From Verrucomicrobiia bacterium (GTDB taxonomy: Bacteria > Verrucomicrobiota > Verrucomicrobiia > Limisphaerales > UBA11358), in the NCBI GenBank assembly GCA_036509895.1, contig DATCEV010000030.1, positions 27,220-91,219 on the forward strand: 64,000 nucleotides of DNA, given 5' to 3'. Below, piece after piece: positions 762 through 42,408 of this stretch (position 1 is the stretch's first letter; each line of letters begins with the position of its first letter). The position numbers and the translations under genes were made by a program. The notes under the pieces were generated by a model. It saw only the letters and a program-made list of their open reading frames with translations, ran no database searches and was not told the origin of the DNA.

Positions 762-2186
762 ATGGCTTTGAAACTGTTCAACACACTCGCGCGCTCCGTT
801 CAGGAATTCACGCCGATGGATTCGGCTGGAAAAAAAGTCGGCATGTATTGTTGCGGGCCGACCGTTTATGACTTCGCGCACATCGGAAACTGGCGCACGT
901 TCGTTTTCGCCGATTTGGTCCGGCGCTATTTGGAATTCAAAAATTTTCAGGTCACGCATGTCATGAACATCACGGACATCGAAGACAAAATCATCAAACG
1001 CGTCTGCGAAAATAAAACTTCTTTGCGCGAATTCACCGGAAAATTTGAAGCCGCCTTTTTTGAGGATTTGAAAACGCTGAATTGCCTTTCGCCGCACCAA
1101 ACCCCGCGCGCCACCGAGCACATTCCAGAAATCATTTCACTCATCGAAAAACTAATTGCGCGCGGCATTGCTTACAAAGCCGGCGACGGCTCGGTTTATT
1201 TCTCAATCGAAAAATATCGCGGTTGCGGCTGCAATTACGGCCAGCTTTTGAAATTGAACTTCGATGAGATGCGCACCGGCGAGCGCGTCAAGAGCGACGA
1301 ATACGCGAAAGAATCCGTCGCCGACTTTGCACTTTGGAAAGCGCGCACGCCGGATGACGGCGATATTTTTTGGCCGAGTCCATTCGGCGAAGGCCGCCCC
1401 GGCTGGCACATTGAGTGCAGTGCGATGAGCATGAAAATTCTTGGGCCGAGTTTCGATCTGCATCTCGGCGGCGAGGATTTGATTTTCCCGCATCACGAGG
1501 ACGAAATCGCGCAAAGCGAAGGCGCGACGCAAAAACCGTTTGTGAAATACTGGCTGCACGGCGCGCATCTTTTGGTTGAAGGCAGAAAAATGAGCAAGTC
1601 GCTTGGAAATTATTTTACGCTGCGTGATCTTCAGGCGAAAGGTTTTTCTGGCCGCGAAGTGCGTTATCTTTTGCTGACCGCGCATTATCGCGAGACATTT
1701 AATTTCACGCTCGATGGCTTGGCCGGTGCTGGGACGGCTCTGGCGCGAATTGACGAGTGCATTGGCAAACTCCGCGAACGCGCGGCGGAAATGTTGTCGC
1801 TCGAAAAAAATCCCGGACAAAATTCCGTGGTCAGTTTGCTGCCGTCGTTCACGGCGGCGCTGGAAGAAGACTTGAACATTTCCGGCGCGTGGGGCGCGGT
1901 CTTTGAATGGATTCGCGAAATAAACCGCCGTCTCGCCGAACATTCCATGAGTCCGACCGCCGCCGAAACGGCGTTGCTGGAATGGAACAAAGTTGATTCC
2001 GTCCTCGGCATCGGCGCAAAATCTGAAACGGAAGTTCCGGCTGAAATTCTGGCGCTGGCCGAAGCGCGCATTGCCGCCAAGAAGGCGAAAGATTTCAAGC
2101 GCAGCGATCAAATCCGCGCCGAATTAAAAGCCAAAGGCTGGGTCGTCGAAGATTCGCCGAAGGGATTCAAATTGAAAAAATTGTGA
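762..2186 (+). CDS. cysS: cysteine--tRNA ligase
   Basis: 474 aa. Class I motifs FAHIGNWRT (HIGH-type) and KMSKSLGN; GWHIECSAMS zinc/Cys-binding region. Confidence 0.95.
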   Translation: MALKLFNTLARSVQEFTPMDSAGKKVGMYCCGPTVYDFAHIGNWRTFVFADLVRRYLEFKNFQVTHVMNITDIEDKIIKRVCENKTSLREFTGKFEAAFFEDLKTLNCLSPHQTPRATEHIPEIISLIEKLIARGIAYKAGDGSVYFSIEKYRGCGCNYGQLLKLNFDEMRTGERVKSDEYAKESVADFALWKARTPDDGDIFWPSPFGEGRPGWHIECSAMSMKILGPSFDLHLGGEDLIFPHHEDEIAQSEGATQKPFVKYWLHGAHLLVEGRKMSKSLGNYFTLRDLQAKGFSGREVRYLLLTAHYRETFNFTLDGLAGAGTALARIDECIGKLRERAAEMLSLEKNPGQNSVVSLLPSFTAALEEDLNISGAWGAVFEWIREINRRLAEHSMSPTAAETALLEWNKVDSVLGIGAKSETEVPAEILALAEARIAAKKAKDFKRSDQIRAELKAKGWVVEDSPKGFKLKKL

Positions 2187-2220
2187 GCAAGAGTCCGTCG
2201 AATTGCTCGATGAAATTACT

Positions 2221-2913
2221 TCAAACTGGATCGCCACCAAAAAGATTCATTGTGGCATTAACTTTTTTCTTTGCATTGCCTGGCGAATGAGCAATCCGTT
2301 CGGCATAAATCGCGGAGAATTGGCGGACGATTAAATTTGTTATTATAGCGGCTTCTTGACACGCATCAATCTTGAACAAATATGGCTTTTGAATGCTTAA
2401 GAAAATTTCACGAGCTTTTTTCAATGTGTCTGTCTTTTCAAAATGATTTGCTCTGTCACCGCGCGTTTTAATTCTTTTCAATCCGGTCTTTGGATCAATG
2501 TCGAGAACTACCAACAAATCTGGTTCGGGAGCAAATTGTTCGTTGAGGTGCATTATTTCTTCTGGACTCATCCCGCGTGCGCCTTGATAGGCCATACTGG
2601 AAAAATAATAACGGTCAACAATCACAATATGGCCAGCGGCCAATTCGGGGTTTATTTTATCTTCGACGTGTTCTTTCCTGTCTTTAACAAATGTTTCGAC
2701 TTCTTCCTCCAGCGAAAGCCTTCCGGTCACTGCCGAATCACGCAAAATCTGTCCCCATTGGCCTGTCGTTGGTTCTTTGGTTCGCATAACGGCGAGCTTT
2801 CGCGCTTGCAGGGCAGCTTGAACATGGTGCGCTTGCGTGGTTTTGCCTGAACCATCAATGCCTTCCATTGCAATTAAGAAACCGGGAAAATGATGTTTTC
2901 TATGCACGCGCAA
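2221..2913 (-). CDS. tmk: thymidylate (dTMP) kinase
   Basis: P-loop MEGIDGSGKTTQ, DRYYFSSMAYQG, length 230 aa. Visibly lower GC than its neighbours. Confidence 0.9.
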   Translation of the reverse strand: MRVHRKHHFPGFLIAMEGIDGSGKTTQAHHVQAALQARKLAVMRTKEPTTGQWGQILRDSAVTGRLSLEEEVETFVKDRKEHVEDKINPELAAGHIVIVDRYYFSSMAYQGARGMSPEEIMHLNEQFAPEPDLLVVLDIDPKTGLKRIKTRGDRANHFEKTDTLKKAREIFLSIQKPYLFKIDACQEAAIITNLIVRQFSAIYAERIAHSPGNAKKKVNATMNLFGGDPV

Positions 2914-3144
2914 AATCTCTCACAATTAACCCAAACCGGTCAATGAATTGGATGAAAATCTTACGATCAGTATTCACAAGCTCATTTAAAAATTGGCTGA
3001 AATAGTTATTCACTTTTTTATCCAACGACTTATTCGTGGCTTGTTCGCATGGTTATTCGCAGGCAGATTTAATCGAAATTTACACTGCATCGCTGCCTGA
3101 ATTTGTTTGGTTGAATTCAAGTGACAGAGTAAGTTTGCTTCAGC

Positions 3145-3477
3145 ATGATCGAAAACACCATCACCAAAATTGAAGCGAAGATTCGCGGCGCGAACGCTGT
3201 CACCGAAGAGCGCAAGCGCGAATTGCTCCAGCTCCTCGGCACGCTTAAATCCGAAATCGGCAAACTTTCCGAAACTCATGGCGAACAGGCGCAAAGCATC
3301 GCGGGCTTTGCAAACGTTTCGGCGCACGAAGCGACGCGCGTGGAAAAAAATCCGCAATCGCTGGAACATTCCGTGCGCGGCCTGCGCTCGTCCGTGGACG
3401 GTTTTGAGCAATCGCATCCCAAACTCGTCCAAATCGTCAACAGCATCAGCAACACGCTGTCGAATCTTGGAATTTGA
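3145..3477 (+). CDS. small helical protein, DUF4404-like
   Basis: 110 aa with a C-terminal ...HPKLVQIVNSISNTLSNLGI tail, which I recall as typical of DUF4404. Family assignment is from memory only. Confidence 0.55.
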   Translation: MIENTITKIEAKIRGANAVTEERKRELLQLLGTLKSEIGKLSETHGEQAQSIAGFANVSAHEATRVEKNPQSLEHSVRGLRSSVDGFEQSHPKLVQIVNSISNTLSNLGI

Positions 3478-3481
3478 CGGA

Positions 3482-3570
3482 ATTTATGATTGATGATTTA
3501 CAATCTATGATTGCTTCGCTGAACGGTTGCTGTTTTGAAAATCATAAATCATCAATCGTAAATCATAAAT
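3482..3570. repeat. ATGATT-unit inverted repeat downstream of plsC
   Basis: atttatgattgatgatttacaatctatgatt ... aatcataaatcatcaatcgtaaatcataaat. Confidence 0.7.
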
Positions 3571-4204
3571 CCTCGCGCGGTTCTAGCTTCGCAATCGCTG
3601 CCATGATTTCGTCCGCGACTTCCTGATAAATTTCTTTCAAGCGCGCTTTGGAACACGTTTTCGCCTCCGCGCGCAATTTTTCAAAACGCATCGGTTCGCC
3701 ATATTTCACCGCGAGCGGTTTCGGCAGATGAAATTTTATTTTGCGGTTGTAACATTCAAACGTTCCGAATGTCCGCACCGGAATCACCACCGCGTCGGAT
3801 TTGATGACCGTCAGGCCGATGCCTGAACGTGCCGGTTGCAACTGGCCGTCCTTCGTGCGCGTGCCTTCGGGAAATAAAATGATCGCGCCGCCTGCGAGCA
3901 GCCGGTCGAGAATCGCCTTCAATCCCGCCGCGCCGCCACCGGCGCGATCCACCGGCACGGAATTCCATTTTCGCAGCAGCCAGCCGACGCCGGGATAACG
4001 AAACAAACTTGCGCGCGCGAGATAATTGATCGGACGCCGCAACCCGGAACCGACCAGCGGTGGATCAAGAAAACTCGCGTGGTTCGACGCCAGAATGACG
4101 CCGCCCGTTTGTGGCACGCGCTCCGCGTTGAAAACGCGCCAGCGAAAATAAATCGTGTAAAGCGCGCGAAAAAAAATCCAGCCGCAGCGATAGAAAAAAT
4201 TCAT
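3563..4204 (-). CDS. plsC: 1-acyl-sn-glycerol-3-phosphate acyltransferase
   Basis: Acyltransferase motifs NHASFLDP and FPEGTRTKDG. Confidence 0.85.
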   Translation of the reverse strand: MNFFYRCGWIFFRALYTIYFRWRVFNAERVPQTGGVILASNHASFLDPPLVGSGLRRPINYLARASLFRYPGVGWLLRKWNSVPVDRAGGGAAGLKAILDRLLAGGAIILFPEGTRTKDGQLQPARSGIGLTVIKSDAVVIPVRTFGTFECYNRKIKFHLPKPLAVKYGEPMRFEKLRAEAKTCSKARLKEIYQEVADEIMAAIAKLEPREDL

Positions 4205-4209
4205 AAAAC

Positions 4210-4292
4210 GAGAATGGAGGATTGAGGATGGAAGATGAAAAAGATTCGGCGCGATTTGTAATTGCTATTCTCCATCTTCAATCCTCCATCAT
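4210..4292. repeat. GGAGGATTGAGGATGGAAG-unit inverted repeat between cmk and plsC
   Basis: gagaatggaggattgaggatggaagatg ... attctccatcttcaatcctccatcatc. Confidence 0.7.
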
Positions 4293-4951
4293 CGCTTTTC
4301 CGCGAGGCGCGAACGGATTTCCTTCAACAGCAACCCGCTCGTCTGCTCGGAAGTCAGGTCAGAATTATTGATGACCTTTGCGCCCAGCGAAATCATCAGC
4401 GGCGCGACGGCGCGCTGGCTGTCGCGCTGATCGCGCGCGGCGAGATTTTCGTCCACGCCATCGGCGGCGCGACGGCGCGAGCGCTCTTCCAATTGCGCGT
4501 CGAGGTAAAACTTGAAATCCGTTTCGGGAAAAACATTCGTGCCGATGTCACGGCCTTCCATCACCAGGTTGCCGAATTGAATGCAATCGCGCTGCGTTTT
4601 CTTCATCCAATCGCGCACCTTCGGAATCGCGGCGACGTGCGACACCGCCGCGCTGACTTCCGAAGTGCGGATTTCTTTTTCGGGAAAATAACCGTCCACG
4701 AGCAAATGCACCGTGCGCAAATTATTTTTCTCCACACATTCCAATTTCGTTTTCCATTTGCGGCAAAGCGCGGCGACGGCTTTCGCGTCATCCACGTCAA
4801 TTTTCTGTTTCAAGCAATGCCACGCCAGCGTGCGATACATCGCGCCCGTGTCCACGTAAACGTAGCCGAGCGCCTTTGCCACGAGCTTGGCGTTCGTGCT
4901 TTTGCCGCTCGCACTCGTGCCGTCAATCGCAATGACAATTGGATTTTTCAA
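4289..4951 (-). CDS. cmk: cytidylate kinase
   Basis: IAIDGTSASGKST P-loop, YVDTGAMYR, 220 aa. Confidence 0.9.
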   Translation of the reverse strand: MKNPIVIAIDGTSASGKSTNAKLVAKALGYVYVDTGAMYRTLAWHCLKQKIDVDDAKAVAALCRKWKTKLECVEKNNLRTVHLLVDGYFPEKEIRTSEVSAAVSHVAAIPKVRDWMKKTQRDCIQFGNLVMEGRDIGTNVFPETDFKFYLDAQLEERSRRRAADGVDENLAARDQRDSQRAVAPLMISLGAKVINNSDLTSEQTSGLLLKEIRSRLAEKR

Positions 4952-4964
4952 AGCAAAGAGTTTC

Positions 4965-5018
4965 GACAGAATGCACAGAATTTACAAAATTAAATTCTGA
5001 GAATTCTGTCATTCTGTC
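4965..5018. repeat. GACAGAAT-unit inverted repeat between aroA and cmk
   Basis: gacagaatgcacagaattt ... aaattctgagaattctgtcattctgtc. Same family as 50842-50903. Confidence 0.8.
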
Positions 5019-5022
5019 TAAA

Positions 5023-6546
5023 TCAATCCGCAAATAATTCCTCGTGCGTTAATTTCTTTCCAGTTTTCGCGTCCAAAATTGTCGCGCCCAAACCTTTTGG
5101 TGGTGGCGCGGCCAACTTCTGGAAAAAATTCGGGAACGTCTTCTTCACGCAGGCGGGATTTTTAATTTTTATGCCGGGAACTTTCAACCCCAGAATCGCA
5201 AAACACATCGCCATGCGATGGTCGTGGTAGGTTTCGATCTCCGCGTCGTGCAACGGCGACGGCCAGACCGTCAGCGTGTCGCCTTCCTCGACCACTTTCG
5301 CGCCGCACTTGGTCAACTCCGTCCGCAACGCGACGACGCGCTCGGTTTCTTGGACGCGCAGGCGGCCAAGGTCGGTAAAATTATAGCGTTGGCCACATAG
5401 CACTGCGATAATAACAGCAGTCATGATGCTATCGCCAAGATCGTCCGATCGCGACAGCGATTTTACCCCATACTTTTCATCAATCTGTTTTTGCCACGTT
5501 TCTTGCTCGTTCTCAACGCGCTGTCGCCAATCTGGTCCATAAGCCTCTCGCACTTCCTCTATAACTCTTGGAATATCTTCAGGATTCCAAGAGTGAAATG
5601 CAGTCAAGAATCCAAGATGTTTTGGAAACTCCGCATCAATCTGCCAGTCTGTGGTAGGCCATTCTCGAACAGTAACAGTTGGGATGCTAATACCTTTGGT
5701 CACAGCGAAACCACCAGTTACGCCAAGAGATAGAGTTGAAGCGACGCCTGCCGCCCAAAAATAACTCCCGCTGCTCGCATCCGGTTCAATTTGAAATTCG
5801 CAGCCGTTTTTCGGAAACACTTCCATCAATTTCAAAGTCATCGCCACATACGGCGATTCCTCCGCGTTCTCGCCAACGACTTCTACCTTCCAATTCCCAA
5901 CCTTTGCGCAAAGCAACAGTGCCGACGCAAATTGCGAACTTTCTTCGATGCTCACCCGACATTTCTTCGTAGGAGACGACGTGAGGAGTCTCTGATCAAT
6001 TCCCACTTTTTTAATTTGAGTCTCGTCACCTCGACTCCTACCGCCAAAAATTTTCACCGGCAACTTGTCATTTCCATTTTCCGATTCGACACGATAACCC
6101 AATTCCTGCAACGCCTGAAACAACGCCGCCTGCGGACGCTCGTGCATCCGCGCCACGCCGTGCAGCCGATAGACTCCGCTGCCCAAACACAAAAACGGCG
6201 CGAGAAAACGCGCCGCCGTCCCCGCATTGCCAACGAACAAATCGAGCGGTTGCGACTCCGTGCCGCCACTCGGAATCAGACCGCCTTCGCCGATGACCAT
6301 GATGGTGCGGTTGCACGCCTCATCCGGGTCGGGCGCGACGCTCACCAAAAATCCAAGCTGCCGCAAACACGCGACCATGATCTGCGTGTCCTCGCTCCAC
6401 AACGCGCCCTTGAGCGTCACCTCGCCGTCCGCGAGCGCGGCCAAGATCAGCGCGCGGTTCGTGATGCTTTTCGAGCCGGGCACGGTGATCTCCGCGCGCA
6501 CGGGCTGCGCGAGCGGCACAATTTCAATTAAATCTGGAAGCGCCAT
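5023..6546 (-). CDS. aroA: 3-phosphoshikimate 1-carboxyvinyltransferase (EPSP synthase) with two extra segments
   Basis: PGSKSITNRALILAALA, EESSQFASALLL, DASSGSYFW, RLRVQETERVVAL, YHDHRMAMCF, CVKKTFPNFF. I place the start at MALPDLIEI (6546) because the 15 upstream codons of the track ORF (to 6591) are encoded by an intergenic repeat element. Confidence 0.9.
   Translation of the reverse strand: MALPDLIEIVPLAQPVRAEITVPGSKSITNRALILAALADGEVTLKGALWSEDTQIMVACLRQLGFLVSVAPDPDEACNRTIMVIGEGGLIPSGGTESQPLDLFVGNAGTAARFLAPFLCLGSGVYRLHGVARMHERPQAALFQALQELGYRVESENGNDKLPVKIFGGRSRGDETQIKKVGIDQRLLTSSPTKKCRVSIEESSQFASALLLCAKVGNWKVEVVGENAEESPYVAMTLKLMEVFPKNGCEFQIEPDASSGSYFWAAGVASTLSLGVTGGFAVTKGISIPTVTVREWPTTDWQIDAEFPKHLGFLTAFHSWNPEDIPRVIEEVREAYGPDWRQRVENEQETWQKQIDEKYGVKSLSRSDDLGDSIMTAVIIAVLCGQRYNFTDLGRLRVQETERVVALRTELTKCGAKVVEEGDTLTVWPSPLHDAEIETYHDHRMAMCFAILGLKVPGIKIKNPACVKKTFPNFFQKLAAPPPKGLGATILDAKTGKKLTHEELFAD
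5969..6041. repeat. full GTAGGAG palindromic element inside the aroA reading frame
   Basis: GTAGGAGACGACGTGAGGAGTCTC - 25 nt - GAGTCTCGTCACCTCGACTCCTAC. Same arms as 59354-59421 but in inverted order. Translated as ~GRSRGDETQIKKVGIDQRLLTSSPT. Confidence 0.85.
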
Positions 6547-16426: not shown

Positions 16427-16731
16427 TCGCTTGATTCAACTGATTTTTGGAAATGGCATTTTTACTTAATATACCTGTCGCTTTCCTTTAGCTTAACACT
16501 TGCCAAGCGATTTGGATTCAAAACGGCGCGACCACCCCCTAAATTTTCCAACGCTTCGCTTCTCACGCAGACAATTCAAGACGGGCACGGCTTTGGCAAT
16601 GAAATTAACTTTTATTTTGTTCAATGCGGTTTGCAGGAAATGTCCGGTTAAAAATGCAAATTGCACAAAGGTTATTGCCAGACTTTTCTAAAAGTTCAAA
16701 ACTTTTTTTCTATGTCCAGCCAACCTTCTCA

Positions 16732-16746
16732 TGGCACATTGATTGC
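16732..16746 (+). promoter_or_regulatory. candidate sigma-54 (-24/-12) promoter TGGCACattgaTTGC
   Basis: Exact GG-N10-GC spacing with TGGCAC and TTGC cores. Intergenic, 75 nt upstream of the ATG at 16822, correct orientation. Confidence 0.55.
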
Positions 16747-16821
16747 GAAGGAAAATCATTGAATGGAAAATCTGGAATTTTTATCCCGCCAAAATTTTAA
16801 TGAATCATCCCCAAGGCACCC

Positions 16822-25527: not shown

Positions 25528-25538
25528 AAGATAAAAAA

Positions 25539-25562
25539 GGAGACGCGATTTCTCGCGTCTCC
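25539..25562. terminator. perfect 10-bp GC-rich hairpin between convergent genes
   Basis: aaaaaaGGAGACGCGAtttcTCGCGTCTCC. On the minus strand the A-run gives a U-tract, so this is an intrinsic terminator for the BON gene and a likely hairpin stop for cgs. Confidence 0.75.
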
Positions 25563-25593
25563 CGAGATTAAACAGATAAAGTAATAATTCAAC

Positions 25594-26989: not shown

Positions 26990-27208
26990 AAAATTTTCAG
27001 TTAAGTCTTAATCCACTGGCGGCTCTCACCGCTCTTTTTCATTTGCAAGTCGCGTGCCGGGGTTTTGGAAATAAAAAATACGTGTGAAATCAAAGATTTC
27101 AGGGATTAAAAAAATTCACCGAATCAAAATTCTATGCAGGCTGCAAGTTTGTTAAAAATTACTTGCGGTCTGCAATTGGTTCCAATAACTGCACTTCTTA
27201 CTTGGCTT

Positions 27209-27350
27209 TGTAGAAAACTTATTATTAACACCTTGCTTTAGCGAGGTGTTAAACGCGCACGGGGGAGAAAAACCGTTGAAACGGTTTTTGTTTTCACCTC
27301 CGGCATTCACCGCGTTAAAACGCGGTGTTAATGAGAAAGATATTTCTACA
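27209..27350 (+). repeat. 142-bp three-hairpin element with terminal inverted repeats, copy B
   Basis: tgtagaaaac...tatttctaca. Hairpins at 27225-27252, 27268-27289 and 27308-27327. Track ORF 27152..27379(-) is a translation artefact of this element. Confidence 0.85.
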
Positions 27351-27557
27351 GAGCATTGGCAGTTCTTTGCAAATTGCAATTTAACCTGCGATTGCCTTGC
27401 AAATTGCTGATTGATATTTTTCCTATTTTGGAATTAAGACCCGATAATTTAAGGAAATGCTGAATAGTAGATTCGGCACAGTGGCAGCTTTAGAAAGAAA
27501 AGAGTTCAGCGTTCTTATAAATTTAAAAAGCAGTGAAAAAATGGAAATCGAATATGT

Positions 27558-30009: not shown

Positions 30010-32169
30010 ATGAAAGTTAATGCTACATTGCGACAGCCCAACAACGGGATTTATAAAACCATTGTCATCTTGTGGCTGTCGCTTTCCGTCGGGAGCATCG
30101 TGCTCGCGGCCATTTCGTGGACGGAACTTTCCCGGCAAATGGCCAGTGCCCGGCAAATGGCCGAGAGCCAGCAAAAATTGGACGCGATTCTCAAATCGCT
30201 TTTGGACAGCGAAACCGGCGCACGCGGATACGTCATTACTGGCAATCCGGTATTTTTGCAACCCTACCAAATAGCGGTGACAAATCTGTCGGTTCAATTC
30301 GGTCAGTTGATTGAATTGGTTCAGCACGATCCTGCGCTGCTTCAACATATCGGCGACTTGCAAGCAGAAGCGGAATTATCCCTTGAAAGCCAACGGCTGA
30401 TTCTGGCCGCCCGGAATCAAAGCTTCACCAATGCCGCCGCCCTGGTTGCCAGCAGAGAAGCCAAACATATCATGGACAACGTTCGCCGTCAGGTGAATGC
30501 CATTTACAACCTTCAATCCAATTTGCGTTCGGATATTCGCGAGCAAGTCAGAGATCAACTCATGCGCGCGAGCCTGACCAGTTTGATCGCCGGAACTTTG
30601 GGATTGATCGCGGGAATTTTCGCCTTCTGGTTGTCGCGCCTCACGTTGCAACATCAAAAACGCGAACGCGATTTGATCGAAGCCAAATTAAAAGCCGAGC
30701 GCAGCAATCGCGAAAAAACCATGTTCCTTGCGAACATGAGCCACGAAATCCGCACGCCGATGAACGCCATTCTCGGTTTCAGCGAATTGCTCCAGGCGGA
30801 TTTGAAAACGCCCAAGCACCGGCAATATCTTCAATCCATCCGCACCAGCGCCGACTCGCTGATGCAATTGATCAACGACATTCTCGACATGTCAAAAATC
30901 GAGACCGGCATGATGGAATTGCGCCCGGAGCCGACCGATCTGCACGAGATTTGCGATTTTCTGCATATGTTATTTTCCGAGCCGACGGCAAAAAAAGGAT
31001 TGAAGCTAAAATGCCACGTCGCCGAAGATTTGCCGCACGCATTGTTGCTGGACCGAATCCGGTTGCGGCAGATTTTGATCAATCTGGTGGGCAACGCCAT
31101 TAAATTCACGGATTCCGGCGGCGTGGAGGTGCGCGTGCTTTGGGAAAAACCGCCGGCCAACAGCGGCCTCACTCTCATCATTGAAATTCAGGATACCGGC
31201 GTGGGCATTCCCAAAGACCGGCTGGATGCGATTTTCAAACCGTTCGTCCAGTCGGGCGCTCATTTGGAAAAAGAAAAGCAAGGAACCGGTCTGGGACTTT
31301 CCATCGTCAAGCGCCTGACCGAAATCATGGGCGGCACCGTGACCGTCGCGAGCGTGATCGGACAAGGCTCGGCCTTTCATTTGCGGTTCACCGACGTTTC
31401 AATTTCCGCGCGCCTGCCCGCTTCCGAAAAAAAGACCAGTCCGGCTGAAATTAATTTCAACACCTTGCGCCAGGCAACTTTGTTGATCGTGGATGACAAT
31501 CAAACCAATTGCCAGTTGATCGCCGGAATTTTTGAAGGCTCGCATCACCGGCTGGTTTTCGGTTTCAGCGGCGAAGAAGCCGTGGCCAAAGCCCGCGAAC
31601 TCAAGCCCGATATTCTTTTGCTCGACGTCAGAATGCCGGGCATGAGCGGAAATGAAGCGTTGCAACAAATCCGCAAAATTCCCGGCCTGGAATTTCTTCC
31701 GGTCATTGCCGTGACCGCTTCCAGTTTGATGGACGAAGAAAAAGTTTTGCGCGAACAATTCAGCGGTTACGTCCGCAAACCTTTTTCAAAGCGGGAATTG
31801 TTCAATGAACTCGCGGATTTTCTGCCGGAGAATTCGCAGGACGGAACCGACGGCCAGCCGAACGGCGCGGAACAAAATGACGTTTCTCCGGCGATGGATG
31901 GAGCCGTGCCGAAAGAATTGATCACGCAATTGCGCCAGTTGCTCGTCGAGCCGTGGCCGTCCATTCGCGACAGCGTGGCAGTCAACGAAAGCAAAATTTT
32001 TGCGCAAGGTCTGGAAGGCTTGGGATTACGCTGGCAATGCCGGCCGTTGATGGCTTACGCGCAAAAAATTTTGAACGACGCGGAAAATTATGCCGTCACG
32101 GATCTGGAAAAACATCTGGGCGAATTTTCCGTGCTGGTCGAACAACTTGAGCAAAACGTGAAAGCATGA
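30010..32169 (+). CDS. hybrid sensor histidine kinase: CHASE3 - HisKA - HATPase_c - REC - helical tail
   Basis: CHASE3 signature LLDSETGARGYVITGNPVFLQPY; H-box MSHEIRTPMNAI; N/G boxes NLVGNAIKFT, DTGVGI, GTGLGLSI; REC LLIVDDN...LLLDVRMPGMSG...KP. Confidence 0.85.
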   Translation: MKVNATLRQPNNGIYKTIVILWLSLSVGSIVLAAISWTELSRQMASARQMAESQQKLDAILKSLLDSETGARGYVITGNPVFLQPYQIAVTNLSVQFGQLIELVQHDPALLQHIGDLQAEAELSLESQRLILAARNQSFTNAAALVASREAKHIMDNVRRQVNAIYNLQSNLRSDIREQVRDQLMRASLTSLIAGTLGLIAGIFAFWLSRLTLQHQKRERDLIEAKLKAERSNREKTMFLANMSHEIRTPMNAILGFSELLQADLKTPKHRQYLQSIRTSADSLMQLINDILDMSKIETGMMELRPEPTDLHEICDFLHMLFSEPTAKKGLKLKCHVAEDLPHALLLDRIRLRQILINLVGNAIKFTDSGGVEVRVLWEKPPANSGLTLIIEIQDTGVGIPKDRLDAIFKPFVQSGAHLEKEKQGTGLGLSIVKRLTEIMGGTVTVASVIGQGSAFHLRFTDVSISARLPASEKKTSPAEINFNTLRQATLLIVDDNQTNCQLIAGIFEGSHHRLVFGFSGEEAVAKARELKPDILLLDVRMPGMSGNEALQQIRKIPGLEFLPVIAVTASSLMDEEKVLREQFSGYVRKPFSKRELFNELADFLPENSQDGTDGQPNGAEQNDVSPAMDGAVPKELITQLRQLLVEPWPSIRDSVAVNESKIFAQGLEGLGLRWQCRPLMAYAQKILNDAENYAVTDLEKHLGEFSVLVEQLEQNVKA

Positions 32170-33323
32170 AAACTGATTCTTCAACCGGCGTGCCGGAACA
32201 AACTAAAAACGGTTCCGCTTCCGCTCCGGAAATTGCGGCGGCGCGGATTTTGGTCGTGGATGACCAGGCGGTCAACATTCAGATCGTCGGCGCGGTGCTC
32301 GGCAATTTGGGCCACGAAATCATTCCCGCTTCCGACGGCGTGACGGCTTTGAAGCGCGTCGCCCTGCGGATGCCGGATTTGATCCTGCTGGATTTGCTGA
32401 TGCCCGGCATGAACGGCTGCGAAGTCTGCCTGCAATTGAAATTAAATCCTGATTGGAAAGAAATTCCCGTCATTTTTTTGTCCGCCGCCGATGACAAGGA
32501 TTTGATCGTGCGCGCGCTGGATTCCGGCGGCGTGGATTACATCACCAAACCGTTCAACCAAGCCGAACTGATTTCGCGCGTGCGGACGCAACTGGCTTTG
32601 AAAAGCGCGCGCGACCGGCTCAAACAATTGGCCGAGGACAAAGATGAATTGCTCGGCATTCTCGCGCATGACGTGAAAAATTATCTGGGCGGGATGAACA
32701 TGAGCGCCGAACTGCTGCGCGAGCGCGTGGGCCGTTTGAACGACGACCGCTTGAAACAATTGTCGGAAAATATTTTTCGTTCCAGCGCGCAGGCCCTCGC
32801 GTTCGTCAAAGAATTTCTCGCCAACTCGGCGGCGGATTACAATTTTACGCCGAATTTGAGCCGCGTGAATCTGGTGGAAATTGCCGACACCGTCATCCAG
32901 CAATATCAGGAAACCGCGCGCCGAAAAAATATCGAGCTCAAAACAGATTTTCCATCCGCGCCCGTCAACGCGCTGGCGGATGCTTCTGCGCTGGATCAAA
33001 TTCTGGACAATTTGCTTTCCAACGCGCTGAAATTTTCGCCGCCGGACAAAAAAGTTTTTGTTTCCGTCCGCGCCGACGGCGAAAAATTGGAATGCGTCAT
33101 CCGCGACGAAGGTCCGGGTTTCACGCCCGACGACAAGGAAAAAATGTTTCGCCGTTACGGCCGGCTTTCGGCGCGACCGACCGGCGGCGAACCGTCCACG
33201 GGATTGGGCTTGAGCATTGTCCATAAACTCGTGGAAGCCATGAACGGTGAATTATTGTGTGAAAGCAGCCCCGACCAGGGCGCGACTTTTACGATTCGCC
33301 TGCCGAAAACTGTTTCAGCTTAA
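32166..33323 (+). CDS. REC-HisKA-HATPase_c response-regulator/histidine-kinase fusion
   Basis: ILVVDDQ...ILLDLLMPGMNG...KPF, then LAHDVKNYLG H-box, SNALKFS, DEGPGF, STGLGLSI. ATGA overlap with the upstream gene. Confidence 0.85.
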   Translation: MKTDSSTGVPEQTKNGSASAPEIAAARILVVDDQAVNIQIVGAVLGNLGHEIIPASDGVTALKRVALRMPDLILLDLLMPGMNGCEVCLQLKLNPDWKEIPVIFLSAADDKDLIVRALDSGGVDYITKPFNQAELISRVRTQLALKSARDRLKQLAEDKDELLGILAHDVKNYLGGMNMSAELLRERVGRLNDDRLKQLSENIFRSSAQALAFVKEFLANSAADYNFTPNLSRVNLVEIADTVIQQYQETARRKNIELKTDFPSAPVNALADASALDQILDNLLSNALKFSPPDKKVFVSVRADGEKLECVIRDEGPGFTPDDKEKMFRRYGRLSARPTGGEPSTGLGLSIVHKLVEAMNGELLCESSPDQGATFTIRLPKTVSA

Positions 33324-33333
33324 TGGAGGATTT

Positions 33334-34698
33334 ATGGATTTTTTAGTCATTGATGATGATAAGACGTTTCGCGACGCCACTTGTTTTTTGATTGAAGAAG
33401 CCGGGCATTACGCGGAAGGCGTCGAGTCCGGCCGGCTTGGATTGTCGTGGTTGAAAGAAGACAAGTGGGACGCGGTTCTGCTGGACTTGAATCTTGGCGG
33501 CGAAAACGGTTTGGACGTGCTGCTGGAAATTCAAAAACAATTTCCGCAAATCCCGGTCGTCATGTTCACCGCGCAAGGCAGCGTCAAAGTCGCCGTCGAA
33601 GCCATGCGCCGGGGCGCCGCCGACTTTTTGGAAAAGCCGTTTCAACGCGAGCAATTCATGACGGTGCTGGCGCGCTTGCAACGGCTCAATCAAATGACGC
33701 GCCGCATCGCGCGGCTCGAACAGGAAGTCACCGAAATCAAAACGCAGGGACTCGAACCGATCTTTGATTTCACGACGCCTGTCATGTGCGAAGTGATGGA
33801 TATTTTGACGCGCGCCGCCAGGACGCCCGCTTCCATTTTGCTGCTCGGCGAAAGCGGCACGGGCAAAAGCGTGGCCGCGCGCGCGATCCACGAAAAAAGT
33901 CATCTCGCGGACAAGCCGTTTGTGACCGTGAGTTGTCCGAGTTTGTCGAAGGAACTTTTGGAAAGCGAATTGTTCGGCCATGTGCGCGGCTCGTTCACCG
34001 GCGCGATCAAAGATCATTGGGGCAAAGTAAAAACTGCCGAGGGCGGAACCCTTTTTCTCGACGAAATTGGCGATTTGCCGATGGAAATTCAGCCGAAATT
34101 ATTGCGCCTTTTGCAGGAGCGCGAATACGAACGGCTGGGCGAAAGTGTGACGCGGCGCGCCAATCTGCGCGTCATCGCCGCGACGAATCGCGATCTCAAA
34201 AAGCGCGTGGCCGACGGTTTGTTTCGCGAAGATTTATATTTCCGGCTCAACGTCATCACCGTGGAAATGCCGCCGTTGCGTTTGCGCGACGGCGATCTGA
34301 TCCGGTTCGTCGAACATTACGAAAAATTTTTTGCGGCGCAATGCGCGCGCAAACTCGAGGGGCTTTCGCCGGAAGCCGTCGGGTGCCTCCGCGCCTACCA
34401 TTGGCCGGGCAACTTGCGCGAATTGCGCAACGCGATTGAACGCGCCGTCATTCTGGCCAAGGGCGATAAACTTCAGCCGGAAGATTTTTCCAACGAAGTG
34501 CGCGGACAAAATGCGGCGGCAAATTCTGGCGCGGAAAATTTGCCGCTGCTCGGCTCATTGATCTCGCTGGAAAAATTGGAGGAATTGCATCTGCGAAAAA
34601 TTCTGGAACGCACGCCAAGTTTGACGGAAGCCGCGCAGGTTTTGGGCATTGACCAGGCGACCCTTTATCGCAAGCGCAAACGCATCGGATTGGAATGA
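33334..34698 (+). CDS. sigma-54-dependent response regulator (NtrC family enhancer-binding protein)
   Basis: REC (VIDDD...LLDLNLGG...KPF), AAA+ GESGTGKS, ESELFGHVRGSFTGA (GAFTGA-type loop), C-terminal HTH AAQVLGIDQATLYRKRKR. Start at MDFLVIDDD (33334). Confidence 0.9.
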   Translation: MDFLVIDDDKTFRDATCFLIEEAGHYAEGVESGRLGLSWLKEDKWDAVLLDLNLGGENGLDVLLEIQKQFPQIPVVMFTAQGSVKVAVEAMRRGAADFLEKPFQREQFMTVLARLQRLNQMTRRIARLEQEVTEIKTQGLEPIFDFTTPVMCEVMDILTRAARTPASILLLGESGTGKSVAARAIHEKSHLADKPFVTVSCPSLSKELLESELFGHVRGSFTGAIKDHWGKVKTAEGGTLFLDEIGDLPMEIQPKLLRLLQEREYERLGESVTRRANLRVIAATNRDLKKRVADGLFREDLYFRLNVITVEMPPLRLRDGDLIRFVEHYEKFFAAQCARKLEGLSPEAVGCLRAYHWPGNLRELRNAIERAVILAKGDKLQPEDFSNEVRGQNAAANSGAENLPLLGSLISLEKLEELHLRKILERTPSLTEAAQVLGIDQATLYRKRKRIGLE

Positions 34699-37628: not shown

Positions 37629-38245
37629 GTTCACCAAATCAAAATCGCCCGGCGCGCGAGACGTTTAATCCCCTCTCAAATTTCCGAGAGCGGAGACCGG
37701 CGCGCTTTTTCATTTTTTGTTTGTGGCTCGCGCTGTTTTATTTGGGCTTGAATGAGGCGCGCAGCCAGAACTTTTCCCGCGAATATCCGCTCAAAGCCGT
37801 CTTTCTTTTTAATTTTGCGCAGTTCACCATCTGGCCGGCCAATGCGTTTGCATCGCCGGATTCGCCGATTGTCATTGGAATTTTGGGCGACGATCCTTTT
37901 GGCGATGTGCTGGAGGAGACAGTGGACAACGAACAAGTCAATGGCCGGAAATTTCGCGTGGAGCGTTACCCGCATTTGGAAGACATCAAAAACTGCCAGA
38001 TCCTTTTTATCAGCCACTCCGAAACGTCGCATCTGGACAAAATTATAAAGGCGTTGAAAGACAAACCTATTTTGACGGTCAGCGGTATTGAGAATGCGGC
38101 CAATCGCGGCGTGTGCATCAGCTTTATCACGGAAAATAATAAAATAAGACTTCGCATCAATACGGATTCTTTGAAGCTTGCGAATCTCACCGTGAGTTCC
38201 AAACTGTTGCGCGTGTCGGAAATTACGCCTTTGCCAGCGCCATGA
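37616..38245 (+). CDS. YfiR family (DUF4154) periplasmic protein
   Basis: YPLKAVFLFNFAQFTIWP, ILFISHSE, C-terminal LLRVSE. Overlaps both neighbours, which suggests translational coupling. Confidence 0.75.
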   Translation: MEILSSPNQNRPARETFNPLSNFRERRPARFFIFCLWLALFYLGLNEARSQNFSREYPLKAVFLFNFAQFTIWPANAFASPDSPIVIGILGDDPFGDVLEETVDNEQVNGRKFRVERYPHLEDIKNCQILFISHSETSHLDKIIKALKDKPILTVSGIENAANRGVCISFITENNKIRLRINTDSLKLANLTVSSKLLRVSEITPLPAP

Positions 38246-40476
38246 CGCAGCCGCATCAATCTTCGATCAAAAGCAAACTGATGACGGTCATCATGCTGGC
38301 CAGCATCACGGTGCTGTTGATGACGGTGGTGGCCTTCATGTTCTATGATTTGGTGACGTTCCGGCAAAACATGGAGCGCAATCTTAGCACCGAGGCGCGG
38401 ATAATCGCCGAGAACAGCACGGCGTCTCTGGCCTTCAAAAATGAAAATGATGCCGCGAGCATTCTCGCTTCGTTGCGGAACGAACCGCACATCATCGCCG
38501 CCGCCATTTATGACGCGCAGGGAAATCTTTTTGTGAAATATCCCGCGCACCTTTCCGCCGCCGCTTTGCCGCGCAAACCGCAAAATCCTGGTTATGAATT
38601 TCAAAAATCGCATCTGACTATTTTTGAGCCGGTCATCCAGGCCGGCGTGCCGCTGGGCACAATTTTCCTGCGTTCCGATTTGACGGCGCTGGCGCAGCGG
38701 CTCGAACTTTACGGCGCCATTTCTTTGCTCATCATGCTCGGTTCGCTGCTGGTCGCCTTCTGGCTTTCAAACACATTGCAACGGCGCATTTCCGATCCCA
38801 TCATTGTTCTGGCGGAAACTGCGAGAAAAATTTCCGAGCAACGGGATTATTCCCTGCGCGCGCCCAAATTGAGCGATGACGAACTGGGTTTGCTCACCGA
38901 TTCTTTCAACGAAATGCTCGAACGCATCCAGGCCAGCGACCAGGCTTTGCGCGCAAGCGAGGCGCAATTTCGTCTCGTGACCGATCAGGCGCCTGTTTTG
39001 CTGGCGCACATGGATCGAAATTATCACTACAAATTTGTCAACCAGACTTACGCCGAACGTTACGGTCTTAAACCTGAAAACATCGTCGGCAAACACGCTG
39101 CGGAAGTCGTCGGGTTGGAATTGTTCGAGCGGGCGCGTCCTTACATAGACAAAGCGCTCGCGGGATTCCAAATCCAATTTGAACTTGAAGTTCCCGATGC
39201 CCATCGTGAACGCCGCTGGAATCATGTGGAATACACGCCGGAAAAAAATTCCGAGGGCGAAGTCGTCGGTTTCGTGGCCGTGCATACGGACATCACCGCG
39301 CGCAAACGCACGGAATTGGAAATGGAACGCACCCGCGATCAAGCGCTCGCCGCTTCCCGCGCCAAAGACGATTTTCTCGCCGCGCTCTCGCACGAATTGC
39401 GCACACCGCTCAATCCCGTGCTGCTGGTCGCCAGCGATGCCGCCGAAGATCCGCAATTGCCCGCGCCAACGCGCGCAAATTTTGAAATGATCCGCCGCAA
39501 CGTAGAATTGGAAGCGCGGCTGATTGACGATTTGCTCGACCTGACCCGGATCACGCGCGGAAAATTGTCGCTCGAAAAACGTTCGCTCGATGTCCGGGAA
39601 GTTCTGCGCGAAGCCATCGCCACCGTGCGCGCCGACGCCGAAAAAAAACGAATCGTCCTGACGCAGGATGGCATGGACAAAGAATGTCTCATGGCCGGCG
39701 ACAGCGTGCGCCTCCAGCAAATTTTTTGGAACGTGTTGAAGAATGCCGTAAAATTCACGCCCGAAGGCGGCAAAATCTCCGTCGAAACGCGTGCGTCGGA
39801 AAACGGAAAAATCATCGTCCAAGTCACGGACACCGGCATCGGTTTGACGGCGGAAGAAATCAGCCACGTTTTCGACACGTTTGCGCAAGGCGATCACGCC
39901 GATCCCAACGGCTCGCATCGTTTTGGCGGACTCGGTTTGGGCCTGGCGATTTCGCGAATGCTCGTGGAACTTCATGCCGGCGTCATTCGCGCGGCCAGCG
40001 CCGGACGTGACCGGGGAGCAACCTTCACGATTGAATTGCCCTGCCTGCCAACAGCGGAAAAAAATAATCTTGCGTCATCCGTGCCGGAAAAAACCGGCGC
40101 CACCATTTCTCAAAAAAAGAATTTTGGCCTGCGCATTCTTTTGATTGAAGACCATGAACCGACTCGCACCACGCTGGCGCATTTGTTGACGCGCCGAAAT
40201 TACAAAGTTAAAACCGCGAATTCGGTCGCCGATGCCCGCGCCATTGCCCAAAAGGAAACTTTCGATCTGGTGGTCTCGGACATTGGATTGCCCGATGGCA
40301 ACGGCTATGAGTTGATGGCCGAATTAAGAGATCAATTCCACCTCAAAGGAATCGCGTTGACCGGTTACGGAATGGATCGCGATGTGGCGGCCGCCCAAAG
40401 CGCCGGTTTCGTCGCGCATCTCACAAAACCAATTCGCGTTGAGTCGTTGGAAAAAGCCTTGCTCGATGCGACTTGA
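38242..40476 (+). CDS. hybrid sensor histidine kinase: periplasmic CHASE8-like - HAMP - PAS - HisKA - HATPase_c - REC
   Basis: TM; AENSTASLAFKNENDAASILASLRNEPHIIAAAIYDAQGNLF (CHASE8-like, from memory); TM; HAMP; PAS; LSHELRTPLNPV; NVLKNAVKFT, DTGIGL, GLGLGLAISR; REC ILLIEDH...VVSDIGLPDGNG...KP. Confidence 0.85.
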   Translation: MTQPHQSSIKSKLMTVIMLASITVLLMTVVAFMFYDLVTFRQNMERNLSTEARIIAENSTASLAFKNENDAASILASLRNEPHIIAAAIYDAQGNLFVKYPAHLSAAALPRKPQNPGYEFQKSHLTIFEPVIQAGVPLGTIFLRSDLTALAQRLELYGAISLLIMLGSLLVAFWLSNTLQRRISDPIIVLAETARKISEQRDYSLRAPKLSDDELGLLTDSFNEMLERIQASDQALRASEAQFRLVTDQAPVLLAHMDRNYHYKFVNQTYAERYGLKPENIVGKHAAEVVGLELFERARPYIDKALAGFQIQFELEVPDAHRERRWNHVEYTPEKNSEGEVVGFVAVHTDITARKRTELEMERTRDQALAASRAKDDFLAALSHELRTPLNPVLLVASDAAEDPQLPAPTRANFEMIRRNVELEARLIDDLLDLTRITRGKLSLEKRSLDVREVLREAIATVRADAEKKRIVLTQDGMDKECLMAGDSVRLQQIFWNVLKNAVKFTPEGGKISVETRASENGKIIVQVTDTGIGLTAEEISHVFDTFAQGDHADPNGSHRFGGLGLGLAISRMLVELHAGVIRAASAGRDRGATFTIELPCLPTAEKNNLASSVPEKTGATISQKKNFGLRILLIEDHEPTRTTLAHLLTRRNYKVKTANSVADARAIAQKETFDLVVSDIGLPDGNGYELMAELRDQFHLKGIALTGYGMDRDVAAAQSAGFVAHLTKPIRVESLEKALLDAT

Positions 40477-41428: not shown

Positions 41429-41851
41429 AAATTTTCATTTAATAAATCTGTCGCAACGCAAGACTCTCTTGCAAAATCAATGCCATCGCGCTTCCCGCAT
41501 CTGAAACCACCCGTTTCTCAAATTTTCAGCGAAAATAAAAAACCAGCAAATGCACAATGCGAGGTCTTGGGCACATATAAATTGCAAATCGCAATTGCAT
41601 TCCATTAAAAAAGCAGCGTAAAATTCTGAAGCTTCTTCAGAAAATTCCTTATGCCAGATTTAAATCTAAAAAACGGACCTCGTGATTTTTTAAAACAAAC
41701 TTTGCTTTTCAAAACCGCCTTGAATTGCAAAAGGCATTTTGAATTTTAGTTTCGGTTTGCAAAATGCTGAATCGAAAATGCCTCCGTGAAATCATGAGCT
41801 TTTTTTCTTCAAATTTTCGAGCAATATTGATTTTTATAAATCGCAATTTTC

Positions 41852-41866
41852 TGGCACGCCGCAAGC
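41852..41866 (+). promoter_or_regulatory. candidate sigma-54 promoter TGGCACgccgcAAGC
   Basis: Correct GG-N10-GC spacing, intergenic, about 110 nt upstream of ORF 41975. The -12 element is weaker (AAGC instead of TTGC). Confidence 0.35.
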
Positions 41867-42120
41867 TAAAATCATTTCAAGAACCGAGGCCGTTGCAAAA
41901 AAGTCCCTAAGTGACTGGACATTGGAAAACAAATGGCAGACAAATTTGCAACCCCTCGTTTCCCATAAACAAAAATGATTATGGCCAAACTAAACAAACC
42001 TGATACCTGGACGGAAGCGGTTTTTGGAAAATTCCAGACCGCCAGTTATTGGGCGCAACGTTTGCAGGAAAAAATTCCCGCATTGCCGGAAAGCCAAAAT
42101 CCCGTCAACGAATACGAAAT

Positions 42121-42408
42121 ATGGAAAAATGCATTACTTGTGGAAACATTCATGAAAAATCCTTCCAGGTGATCTTGGATGGAAAAACTTATACTTTCGA
42201 TTCGTTTGATTGCGCCATTCAAGCGCTCGCTGCCGTGTGTCCGCATTGCCACAGCAAAATCATTGGCCTTGGCCTCAAGGAAAATAATAAAATTTATTGT
42301 TCAGCCCAATGTGCGACGTTTGAGCGGCGATTGGAAAAATTGCTGCGAGGCGGATTTAACCCATTCCACACTCCGCTTAAAAATGAACGGGCCGCTGCCA
42401 CAGCTTAA
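42121..42408 (+). CDS. Cys-rich putative metal-binding protein
   Basis: MEKCITCGN...FDSFDCAIQALAAVCPHCHSKIIGLGLKENNKIYCSAQCA has a CxxC...C...CxxC...CxxxC pattern. Start chosen at the internal Met of track ORF 42049..42408. Confidence 0.45.
   Translation: MEKCITCGNIHEKSFQVILDGKTYTFDSFDCAIQALAAVCPHCHSKIIGLGLKENNKIYCSAQCATFERRLEKLLRGGFNPFHTPLKNERAAATA

Follow-up and report, generated by a model that had tools for sequence, protein, structure and literature searches.

A sigma-54 promoter served by tandem enhancers is a well-known, textbook type of element. At the enteric promoter glnAp2, two NtrC sites lie 32 bp apart, roughly 100-140 bp upstream of the transcription start, with half-sites that begin or end in TGCA. 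The present analysis concerns a comparable arrangement in front of a cgs gene, which specifies a putative cyclic beta-1,2-glucan synthase, in a stretch of 64,000 nt (64 kb, 51.8% G+C; hereafter the window) from a Verrucomicrobiia bacterium (contig DATCEV010000030.1). The -24/-12 element at 16732-16746 and the dyads upstream of it are likely to be a functional sigma-54 promoter and its tandem enhancers, driving cgs as a member of a stress-type regulon, with the protein encoded at 33334-34698 as the most likely activator. The closest protein relatives of the window are labelled Limisphaerales, Verrucomicrobiae or Verrucomicrobiota by the source databases, and the alphaproteobacterial models to which a preliminary description of this DNA had compared cgs do not fit a host that, to judge from these relatives, is a Limisphaerales-like verrucomicrobium. 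This lineage is abundant in soil and peat, and uncultured.

Likeness to glnAp2 extends to the -24/-12 promoter, to two dyads about three helical turns apart, to their distance from the start, to the TGCA of the half-sites, and to an activator combining a receiver domain (REC), an AAA+ domain and HTH_8. The NtrC dyad, however, is 17 bp long whereas the dyad found here is 11 bp (TGCAA-N-TTGCA), and glnAp2 serves nitrogen assimilation with input from NtrB, in contrast to the stress and envelope genes and the CHASE3 hybrid-kinase relay of this locus. NtrC is the best NCBIfam match of the window activator, yet the two are not orthologs (362 bits against a cut-off of 559). The DctD-dependent dctA promoter of Rhizobium leguminosarum is alike in promoter sequence only, in its -24 element and -12 region, and differs in organism, activator and function (C4-dicarboxylate transport).

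The closest parallel is ndvB of Pseudomonas aeruginosa, a glucan-synthase gene under a stress or stationary-phase alternative sigma factor, although that factor belongs to the sigma-70 family and uses neither enhancer nor ATPase; no enrichment of sigma-54 sites was found upstream of Pseudomonas or other distant cgs genes. In general stress regulons (sigma-S, sigma-B, EcfG) the gene content is similar, including CsbD, BON, DUF883, Dps/ferritin, DUF892 and small membrane proteins. RsbK of Bacillus cereus has a CHASE3 domain and, like the kinase considered here, is a hybrid kinase at the top of a stress pathway. RsbK-RsbY and EcfG differ in relying on a partner-switching cascade or an extracytoplasmic function sigma factor, where a sigma-54 activator and a DNA enhancer are proposed here, with stress induction presumed. 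AlgB, the JGI label of the activator orthologs, shares the REC-AAA+-HTH_8 architecture, and the label reflects similarity only; there are no alginate genes near the activator gene in the window or in three related loci (L169, L170, L171). The RsbK-RsbY pathway controls sigma-B (PMC9912610), and expression of P. aeruginosa ndvB is reported to be RpoS-dependent (Hall et al. 2018, as cited in PMC9322497).

Transcriptional control of cyclic beta-1,2-glucan synthases is little known, and a concrete promoter, enhancer and candidate activator can now be proposed. A literature search turned up no case of sigma-54 control for cgs, ndvB or chvB, no comparable dyad-defined sigma-54 stress regulon, and no general stress regulator for Verrucomicrobiota. 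In a survey of sigma-54 regulons, the phylum appears only through Opitutia, for motility and ABC transport (PMC12316311). Both sigma-54 control of a cgs/ndvB/chvB-type gene and a dyad-defined general-stress regulon in Verrucomicrobiota therefore appear to be new.

The proposed cgs promoter and its dyads

The 2901-aa cgs product fits the Cgs/NdvB/ChvB proteins in size (~2800-2900 aa) and layout, with a C-terminal GH94 region and a central glucoamylase-like domain; Pfam recognised GH94 supersandwich, GH94 catalytic and glucoamylase-like (Glycoamylase) domains. Best-segment identity to cgs-like GTDB genes of many phyla was 43-56% over nearly the full length, among the matches listed. The N-terminal third, where Cgs proteins have a GT84 glycosyltransferase domain, matched no Pfam or NCBIfam model, and homologs of this region carry the source name cyclic beta-1,2-glucan synthetase. 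The product is best regarded as a putative cyclic beta-1,2-glucan synthase-like protein.

The element in front of cgs is exactly as first described: GG at 16733-34 and GC at 16745-46 enclose 10 nt, all 10 core bases match, and 75 nt separate the GC from the cgs ATG (16822), in intergenic DNA and in the correct orientation. The exact string TGGCAC-N5-TTGC occurs once in the window, in this element, against 0.29 expected per shuffled window. Transcription is predicted to start near 16758, which would give a 5' untranslated region of about 64 nt. The case for a promoter rests on conservation, and on the association of dyads with sigma-54 sites, more than on this single sequence.

Related loci were found via the cgs N-terminus in metagenome contigs and among contigs of fragmentary cgs homologs; they are metagenomic, with peat and soil samples among their sources (for example JGI 3300001398 and 3300018042), and several are nanopore assemblies with frameshifts. 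Orthologous -24/-12 elements were present in six of them, 61-78 nt before the cgs ATG, a matching distance that bears out the proposal of a sigma-54 promoter. They read TGGCACGCAGATTGC (L163), TGGCACGCTGAATGC (L084), TGGCACAGCGATTGC (L164, GCA_037200185.1), TGGCACGCCGATTGC (L166 and L167) and TGGCATGCTAAATGC (L168), each followed by AAA, and share the form TGGCA(C/T)-N5-(T/A)TGCAAA. Identity of the cgs N-terminus over these six loci was 63-71%. Sites were scored with a position weight matrix (PWM) for which 51 validated sigma-54 promoters served as training set (from E. coli, B. subtilis and the Barrios compilation; S2 table of PMC12316311, the S3 supplement of which gives protein motifs and no DNA position-specific scoring matrix). 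This was preferred to an earlier PWM from 41 sites, by which the window cgs site had scored 8.5 bits. The six orthologous sites reached 16.4-20.3 bits, inside the validated range, and were the top six in the 228 kb of clade DNA compared. When the window and the six relatives were aligned (seven sequences), mean column identity was 55%, and the invariant columns lay mainly in a distal block TGCnnTTTGC, the dyad TGCAAnnTGC, the element TGGCA...TGC.AA and the start codon.

The dyad had been described as centred about 77 bp upstream of the promoter. It is indeed present at 16655-16665, but 77 bp is the distance from start to start, and its centre lies 72 bp upstream of the T of TGGCAC. Exact copies number two in the window, against 0.34 expected. 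The cgs dyad of all six relatives has the form TGCAA(A/T)(T/A)TGC(A/C), 77-103 bp upstream of the -24 element, and in most of them a weaker copy precedes it by about 30 bp; the positions of the two sites range from about -72/-102 to about -84/-114 over the window, L164, L166, L167 and L168. The distal block was found in six of the seven aligned sequences, L084 deviating at several positions. The spacer between dyad and promoter is rich in A/T tracts and may bend the DNA for looping.

Gene order is partly shared as well. In L164, L166 and L167, as in the window, PLD and ABC1 kinase genes diverge on one side of cgs, and the other side holds DUF3185, csbD, ferritin, DUF5670, DUF883 and a holin-X-like gene; in L163, ABC1 is still upstream of cgs. 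In a protein search with the cgs N-terminus, every match was shorter than 900 aa and the window cgs itself was not among them, the matches being frameshifted fragments or partial genes. Sampling of intact orthologs of ~2900 aa may thus be incomplete, and the promoter could have closer relatives than those compared.

Two other GG-N10-GC sites were seen in the cgs intergenic region. One (GGGCACGGCTTTGGC, 16583-16597, plus strand, 10.3 bits) lies upstream of the enhancer sites, is not kept in the relatives and is probably a chance match. The other (TGGCAAGTGTTAAGC, 16491-16505, minus strand) faces the divergent ABC1-kinase and PLD genes and has counterparts in L164 (9684), L166 (9697) and L163 (4732, minus strand) with the conserved form CGGTATG-N4-ATTGCT; these elements score 3-7 bits and stand 125-155 bp from the same dyads. 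From its spacing and conservation, the 16505 (minus strand) site is a candidate promoter, and the cgs enhancer may work in both directions. ABC1 orthologs with 85-87% identity (L172-L182) did not adjoin cgs, and no dyad or sigma-54 site of at least 8/10 core bases was found upstream of ABC1 in them; a search for closer relatives by way of the divergent ABC1 kinase was therefore uninformative.

Predicted dyad-linked promoters and the candidate activator

The 228 kb of clade DNA contain 16 copies of the exact dyad and the distant loci, 2.55 Mb in total, only one, a frequency about 180 times higher in the clade. Every one of the 16 faces an outward GG-N10-GC site (at least 7/10 core bases) 40-170 bp away; the random mean was 4.1, and none of 2000 permutations reached 16. 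At stricter thresholds the count was 14 of 16 (at least 8/10) and 10 of 16 (at least 9/10). Conversely, all 11 sites scoring at least 14.6 bits have a dyad-like site (at least 8/10 core, mostly 9-10) 77-124 bp upstream. Clade dyads are usually paired, 30-32 bp apart. Together with its conservation at cgs, this association favours the predicted role of the dyad as an enhancer site.

The two best PWM matches in the window are likewise intergenic, correctly oriented and linked to dyads. The best, at 41485 (minus strand), lies 42 nt before the start codon (41428) of a gene for a 59-aa basic protein, with a lipoprotein gene (41207-40536) behind it, and the arrangement in L171 is similar. The second, at 27059 (minus strand), lies 55 nt from the ATG (26989) of a csbD-like gene, assigned to CsbD by Pfam; in L169, L170 and L171 its orthologs (CGGCACGCCnnTTGCAAA) are preceded at 88-124 bp by two perfect dyads. 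In these three loci the two dyads, 32 bp apart, stand between the divergent csbD promoter and an element in front of a ferritin/DUF5670/DUF883/holin-X-like operon. The corresponding pair in the window lies 101 and 71 bp upstream of a candidate promoter at 27474, which precedes an lmo0937-family/DUF883/holin-X-like operon leading toward the phosphorelay genes. The form CGGCAC-N5-(C/G)CAGCT(A/T)(A/T) is kept at this position in the window, L166 (20057), L169 (4406), L170 (4111) and L171 (4593), 71-115 bp downstream of dyad pairs; in the four relatives it reads CGGCAC-N5-CAGCTAA, 82-115 bp from the dyads. Its spacing is correct, with CAGC instead of TTGC at -12, and it scores 4.2-6.7 bits; it is read here, with low confidence, as a possible weak sigma-54 promoter peculiar to this lineage, and may be something different.

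The genes behind dyad-linked promoters include those for CsbD, OsmY-like BON, ElaB/YqjD-like DUF883, ferritin/Dps, lmo0937-family peptides, BrkB and DJ-1/PfpI proteins, and these loci also contain DUF892 and small membrane protein genes. This suggests that cgs belongs to a stress-type sigma-54 regulon sharing the dyad motif, and the 11-bp motif offers a means of mapping such a regulon, in which classical general-stress genes abound.

An NtrC-family activator gene within a four-gene phosphorelay had been placed about 8 kb downstream of cgs, and it is there, among three histidine-kinase genes, 7.8 kb past the cgs stop codon. Its product carries Response_reg, Sigma54_activat (3.8e-64) and C-terminal HTH_8 domains, with Walker A GESGTGKS and the loop GSFTGA. 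More than 120 clusters match it at 83-94% identity, far above the conservation of cgs; GSFTGA was kept in 118 of 120 orthologs, and the HTH was nearly invariant. A named identity (NtrC, AtoC, ZraR, NtrX or AlgB) was rejected, as no NCBIfam equivalog cut-off was reached (after NtrC, AtoC scored 355 bits against 714), and by these comparisons the protein is a member of an unnamed NtrC-family subfamily. Although L169, L170 and L171 were selected solely by activator similarity, all three have the gene order of the window, csbD (minus strand), stress operon (plus strand), CHASE3 hybrid kinase, REC-kinase and activator, with the dyad pair 5.5-6 kb upstream of the activator gene. In L170, an intact cgs of 2903 aa lies immediately upstream, as in the window. 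The preliminary description had called the link between activator and promoter pure inference; it now has a conserved neighbourhood behind it, and the assignment is still indirect. Because its linkage to a dyad-controlled stress operon is conserved, the 33334-34698 protein is the best candidate for the dyad-binding protein. It may also regulate itself through the upstream stress operon.

The proposed mechanism would run as follows. The sigma-54 (RpoN) holoenzyme would occupy the cgs element as a closed complex, and the activator, phosphorylated through the adjacent CHASE3 hybrid-kinase relay, would oligomerise on the dyad and on the degenerate site beyond it, at about -72 and -102 from TGGCAC, or some 100 and 130 bp from where transcription is predicted to begin. 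It would then loop across the A/T-tract spacer and open the promoter by ATP hydrolysis. The same dyad motif would also control the neighbouring sigma-54 promoters, those of csbD, of the ferritin/lmo0937/DUF883/holin-like operon, and of the small basic protein and lipoprotein. Of this, the sequence elements, their conservation and the pairing of dyads with promoters are observed; where transcription starts, whether the DNA loops, which protein activates and what signal induces are inferred. Envelope, osmotic or desiccation stress is suggested as the signal, because a CHASE3 hybrid kinase is combined with a stress-type gene set. Periplasmic glucans function in osmoadaptation, as known from the biology of osmoregulated periplasmic glucans and cyclic glucans, and a signal of this kind would fit that role.

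A broader reading, offered tentatively as possible, is that in Limisphaerales-like Verrucomicrobiota sigma-54 and one highly conserved REC-AAA+-HTH activator that reads TGCAA-N-TTGCA and is fed by a CHASE3 hybrid-kinase phosphorelay form a master switch for general or osmotic stress, with cgs as one output and possible autoregulation. If true, an enhancer-dependent sigma factor would fill a role that usually falls to sigma-70-family stress sigmas, and the system, with sigma-54 at its base, would correspond in function to sigma-S, sigma-B or EcfG.

Alternative explanations

A number of observations weigh against a sigma-54 promoter that is driven from these dyads by the 33334-34698 protein, and they are given here with the alternatives on which they bear. 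The alternative that survives best, although somewhat unlikely, accepts promoter and dyad but has the dyad bound by another activator encoded elsewhere, the 33334-34698 protein having other targets. The assignment of this protein is drawn from gene neighbourhood; bacteria with sigma-54 often carry many activators, and others in this genome could bind the dyad. Another Sigma54_activat gene adjoins cgs in L162, the cgs promoter and dyad are kept with other neighbours in the compared stretches of L084 (KaiC-like ATPase and PAS hybrid kinase) and L168, and no dyad or strong sigma-54 site stands directly before the phosphorelay genes. On the other side, two perfect dyads precede the operon running into the phosphorelay in each of the three activator-selected loci, the activator HTH is nearly invariant in 120 orthologs and so is the dyad core across loci, and no other activator is encoded within the window.

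It is improbable that the dyad is instead an operator for a repressor, or for a regulator unrelated to sigma-54, that co-occurs with stress genes. Perfect palindromes of 11 bp are what many dimeric regulators typically bind, the half-sites are closer together than those of classical NtrC sites, and the dyad is short for a dimer of Fis-type HTH domains. Nor is the distance to the promoter phase-locked: it ranges over 72-124 bp, and a helically phased spacing was rejected. An operator would, however, leave several features of the arrangement unaccounted for. The dyads do not overlap the -24 element but precede it by 70-125 bp, they form pairs 30-32 bp apart, one of which stands between two divergent GG-N10-GC promoters, the geometry is like that of the glnAp2 enhancer, and every exact copy faces a sigma-54-like site. 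An enhancer accordingly remains the preferred role for the dyad.

The sequence of the window, taken alone, would not raise the cgs site above chance. Its core justifies the word canonical that had been applied to it, but its PWM score does not: at 11.5 bits it falls below the training minimum of 14.1 (median 19.6), ranks sixth in the window and is the weakest of the orthologs. The PWM check, made on the window, gave an average of 2.4 sites of at least 11.5 bits per shuffled window. The penalties come from the uncommon spacer ATTGA and from the G following GC. The latter is compatible with function, because the validated R. leguminosarum dctA promoter TGGCACGGCGATTGCGAAGG shares its -12 region TTGCGAAGG with the cgs site TGGCACATTGATTGCGAAGG (S2 table, PMC12316311). 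Both coding-region matches mentioned in the preliminary description exist. That at 1404-1418 (TGGCACATTGAGTGC) scores 12.9 bits, above the cgs site; it lies in a Cys-tRNA synthetase gene (762-2186), in a frame reading W-H-I-E-C, and is explained by coding constraint and not as a promoter. That at 4112 matches 8/10 core positions. An rpoN gene was looked for in the 64-kb window and is not there; the conserved activator, whose sigma-54-interaction domain is intact, speaks indirectly for sigma-54 in this genome, and sigma-54 regulons have been reported in Verrucomicrobiota (PMC12316311).

The element is also restricted in its distribution. No such element was found in a sister clade with cgs ~65% identical (L081, L082, L086, L162). 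Upstream of 70 distant GTDB cgs loci there were 10 sites with at least 8/10 core bases against 8.0 expected, and none with at least 9; upstream of 80 metagenome cgs loci there were six with at least 8/10 against 9.8 expected, and the sole site with at least 9 was that of L084. Sigma-54 control as a general property of cgs was therefore rejected, there being no enrichment upstream of these 150 distant loci, and the cgs element is lineage-specific. It is hardly credible, all the same, that motif and palindrome are functionless chance matches and that cgs is transcribed from an unrecognised promoter of the housekeeping type: for all the unremarkable PWM score, the multiple testing inherent in a scan of the whole window and the lack of enrichment at distant cgs genes, both elements are kept at the same positions in six diverged relatives whose flanks are ~55% identical, the orthologs lead the PWM ranking in 228 kb, and the dyad-sigma-54 site association holds for 16 of 16 copies.

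Feature coordinates and additional observations

Table 1. Features of the window that bear on the cgs promoter and the dyad-linked regulon.
Feature	Sequence	Position	Strand	Basis or remark
Distal degenerate second site, 30 bp upstream of dyad	TGCGGTTTGCA	16625-16635		Block TGCnnTTTGC in the seven-sequence alignment
Proximal enhancer-like dyad	TGCAAATTGCA	16655-16665		Kept in six relatives
A/T-tract-rich spacer	TTTTCTAAAAGTTCAAAACTTTTTTT	16666-16731		Sequence not kept among relatives
Putative sigma-54 -24/-12 element of cgs (TGGCAC-ATTGA-TTGC)	TGGCACATTGATTGC	16732-16746	+	Core match, ortholog conservation
cgs, cyclic beta-1,2-glucan synthase-like, 2901 aa		16822-25527	+	Open reading frame and Pfam domains; putative promoter target
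Second predicted sigma-54 promoter	CGGCACGCGACTTGC(A) / CGGCACGCGACTTGCA	27045-27059	-	14.6 bits, second best in window
Dyad pair, 30 bp apart	TGCAAATTGCA (27368-27378), TGCAAATTGCT (27398-27408)	27368-27408		
Candidate sigma-54-like promoter, non-canonical -12	CGGCACAGTGGCAGC	27474-27488	+	GG-N10-GC spacing, conservation
CHASE3 hybrid histidine kinase (30010-32169) and REC-histidine kinase (32166-33323)		30010-33323	+	Pfam; order kept in L169, L170, L171
Candidate enhancer-binding protein, REC, sigma-54-interaction AAA+ and HTH_8		33334-34698	+	Pfam
Short sensor-less histidine kinase overlapping activator stop codon		34695-35414	+	Pfam; kept in L169, L170
Third predicted sigma-54 promoter	TGGCATTGATTTTGC(A) / TGGCATTGATTTTGCA	41471-41485	-	Best PWM score in window, 16.0 bits
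Dyad-like site (minus strand), 103 bp upstream of the 41485 promoter	TGCGATTTGCA	41583-41593		

Between the csbD promoter and the perfect dyads of the window lies a structured segment of ~150 bp (27205-27354) that is missing from the relatives. Inverted repeats (GCTTTGTAGAAA / TTTCTACAGAGC) flank it, and of the three hairpins inside, two have TTAACACC...GGTGTTAA in common. A known RNA or mobile element was rejected, the segment giving no significant Rfam match; it may be an insertion resembling a miniature inverted-repeat transposable element, or a small RNA. At 70-110 bp from the csbD promoter, the ancestral position, degenerate dyads (TGCAGGCTGCA, TGCGGTCTGCA) are still present.

Divergent from the 41485 promoter, a site at 41852-41866 (plus strand; TGGCACGCCGCAAGCTAA) reaches 12.0 bits, and weak dyad-like sites precede it by 89 and 121 bp. 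It lies in front of small open reading frames, including one for a Cys-rich protein of 119 aa (42049-42408), and may mark a further member of the regulon.

Additional kinases were seen near these loci. Directly upstream of the cgs enhancer of L084 are genes for a KaiC-like ATPase and a PAS hybrid kinase (1112-5663), the receiver end of the latter being closely like that of the CHASE8-HAMP-PAS hybrid kinase of the window (38242-40476), and the activator operon of L169 and L170 is followed by genes for giant HAMP-repeat kinases (~2100 aa). Several kinases may thus form a network around the regulon.

A strong, G+C-rich hairpin (GGAGACGCGAGAAATCGCGTCTCC, 25538-25563) lies between the convergent cgs and BON-domain genes. 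With A-runs and T-runs on its two sides, it probably terminates transcription in both directions, that of cgs and that of the csbD-CBM48-BON operon. At the other end of the gene, a riboswitch or other RNA element in the cgs leader was rejected, as the Rfam search returned no credible match there, and a sigma-70-like promoter was rejected after a scan of the plus strand of the cgs intergenic region found none.

The sister clade has a cgs leader of its own. In L081 (5830-5950), L082 (5860-5980) and L086 (2110-2230) there is a common hairpin leader, ATGGGG(T/G)(C/T)TTCACCCCAT, followed by AAGTCCTAAAC...CCATCGCAG, and in L162 (7955-8000), where the intergenic gap is 45 bp, only the start-proximal motif ...CCATCGCA... 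is kept. This leader could be a different promoter, or an RNA element of the 5' untranslated region.

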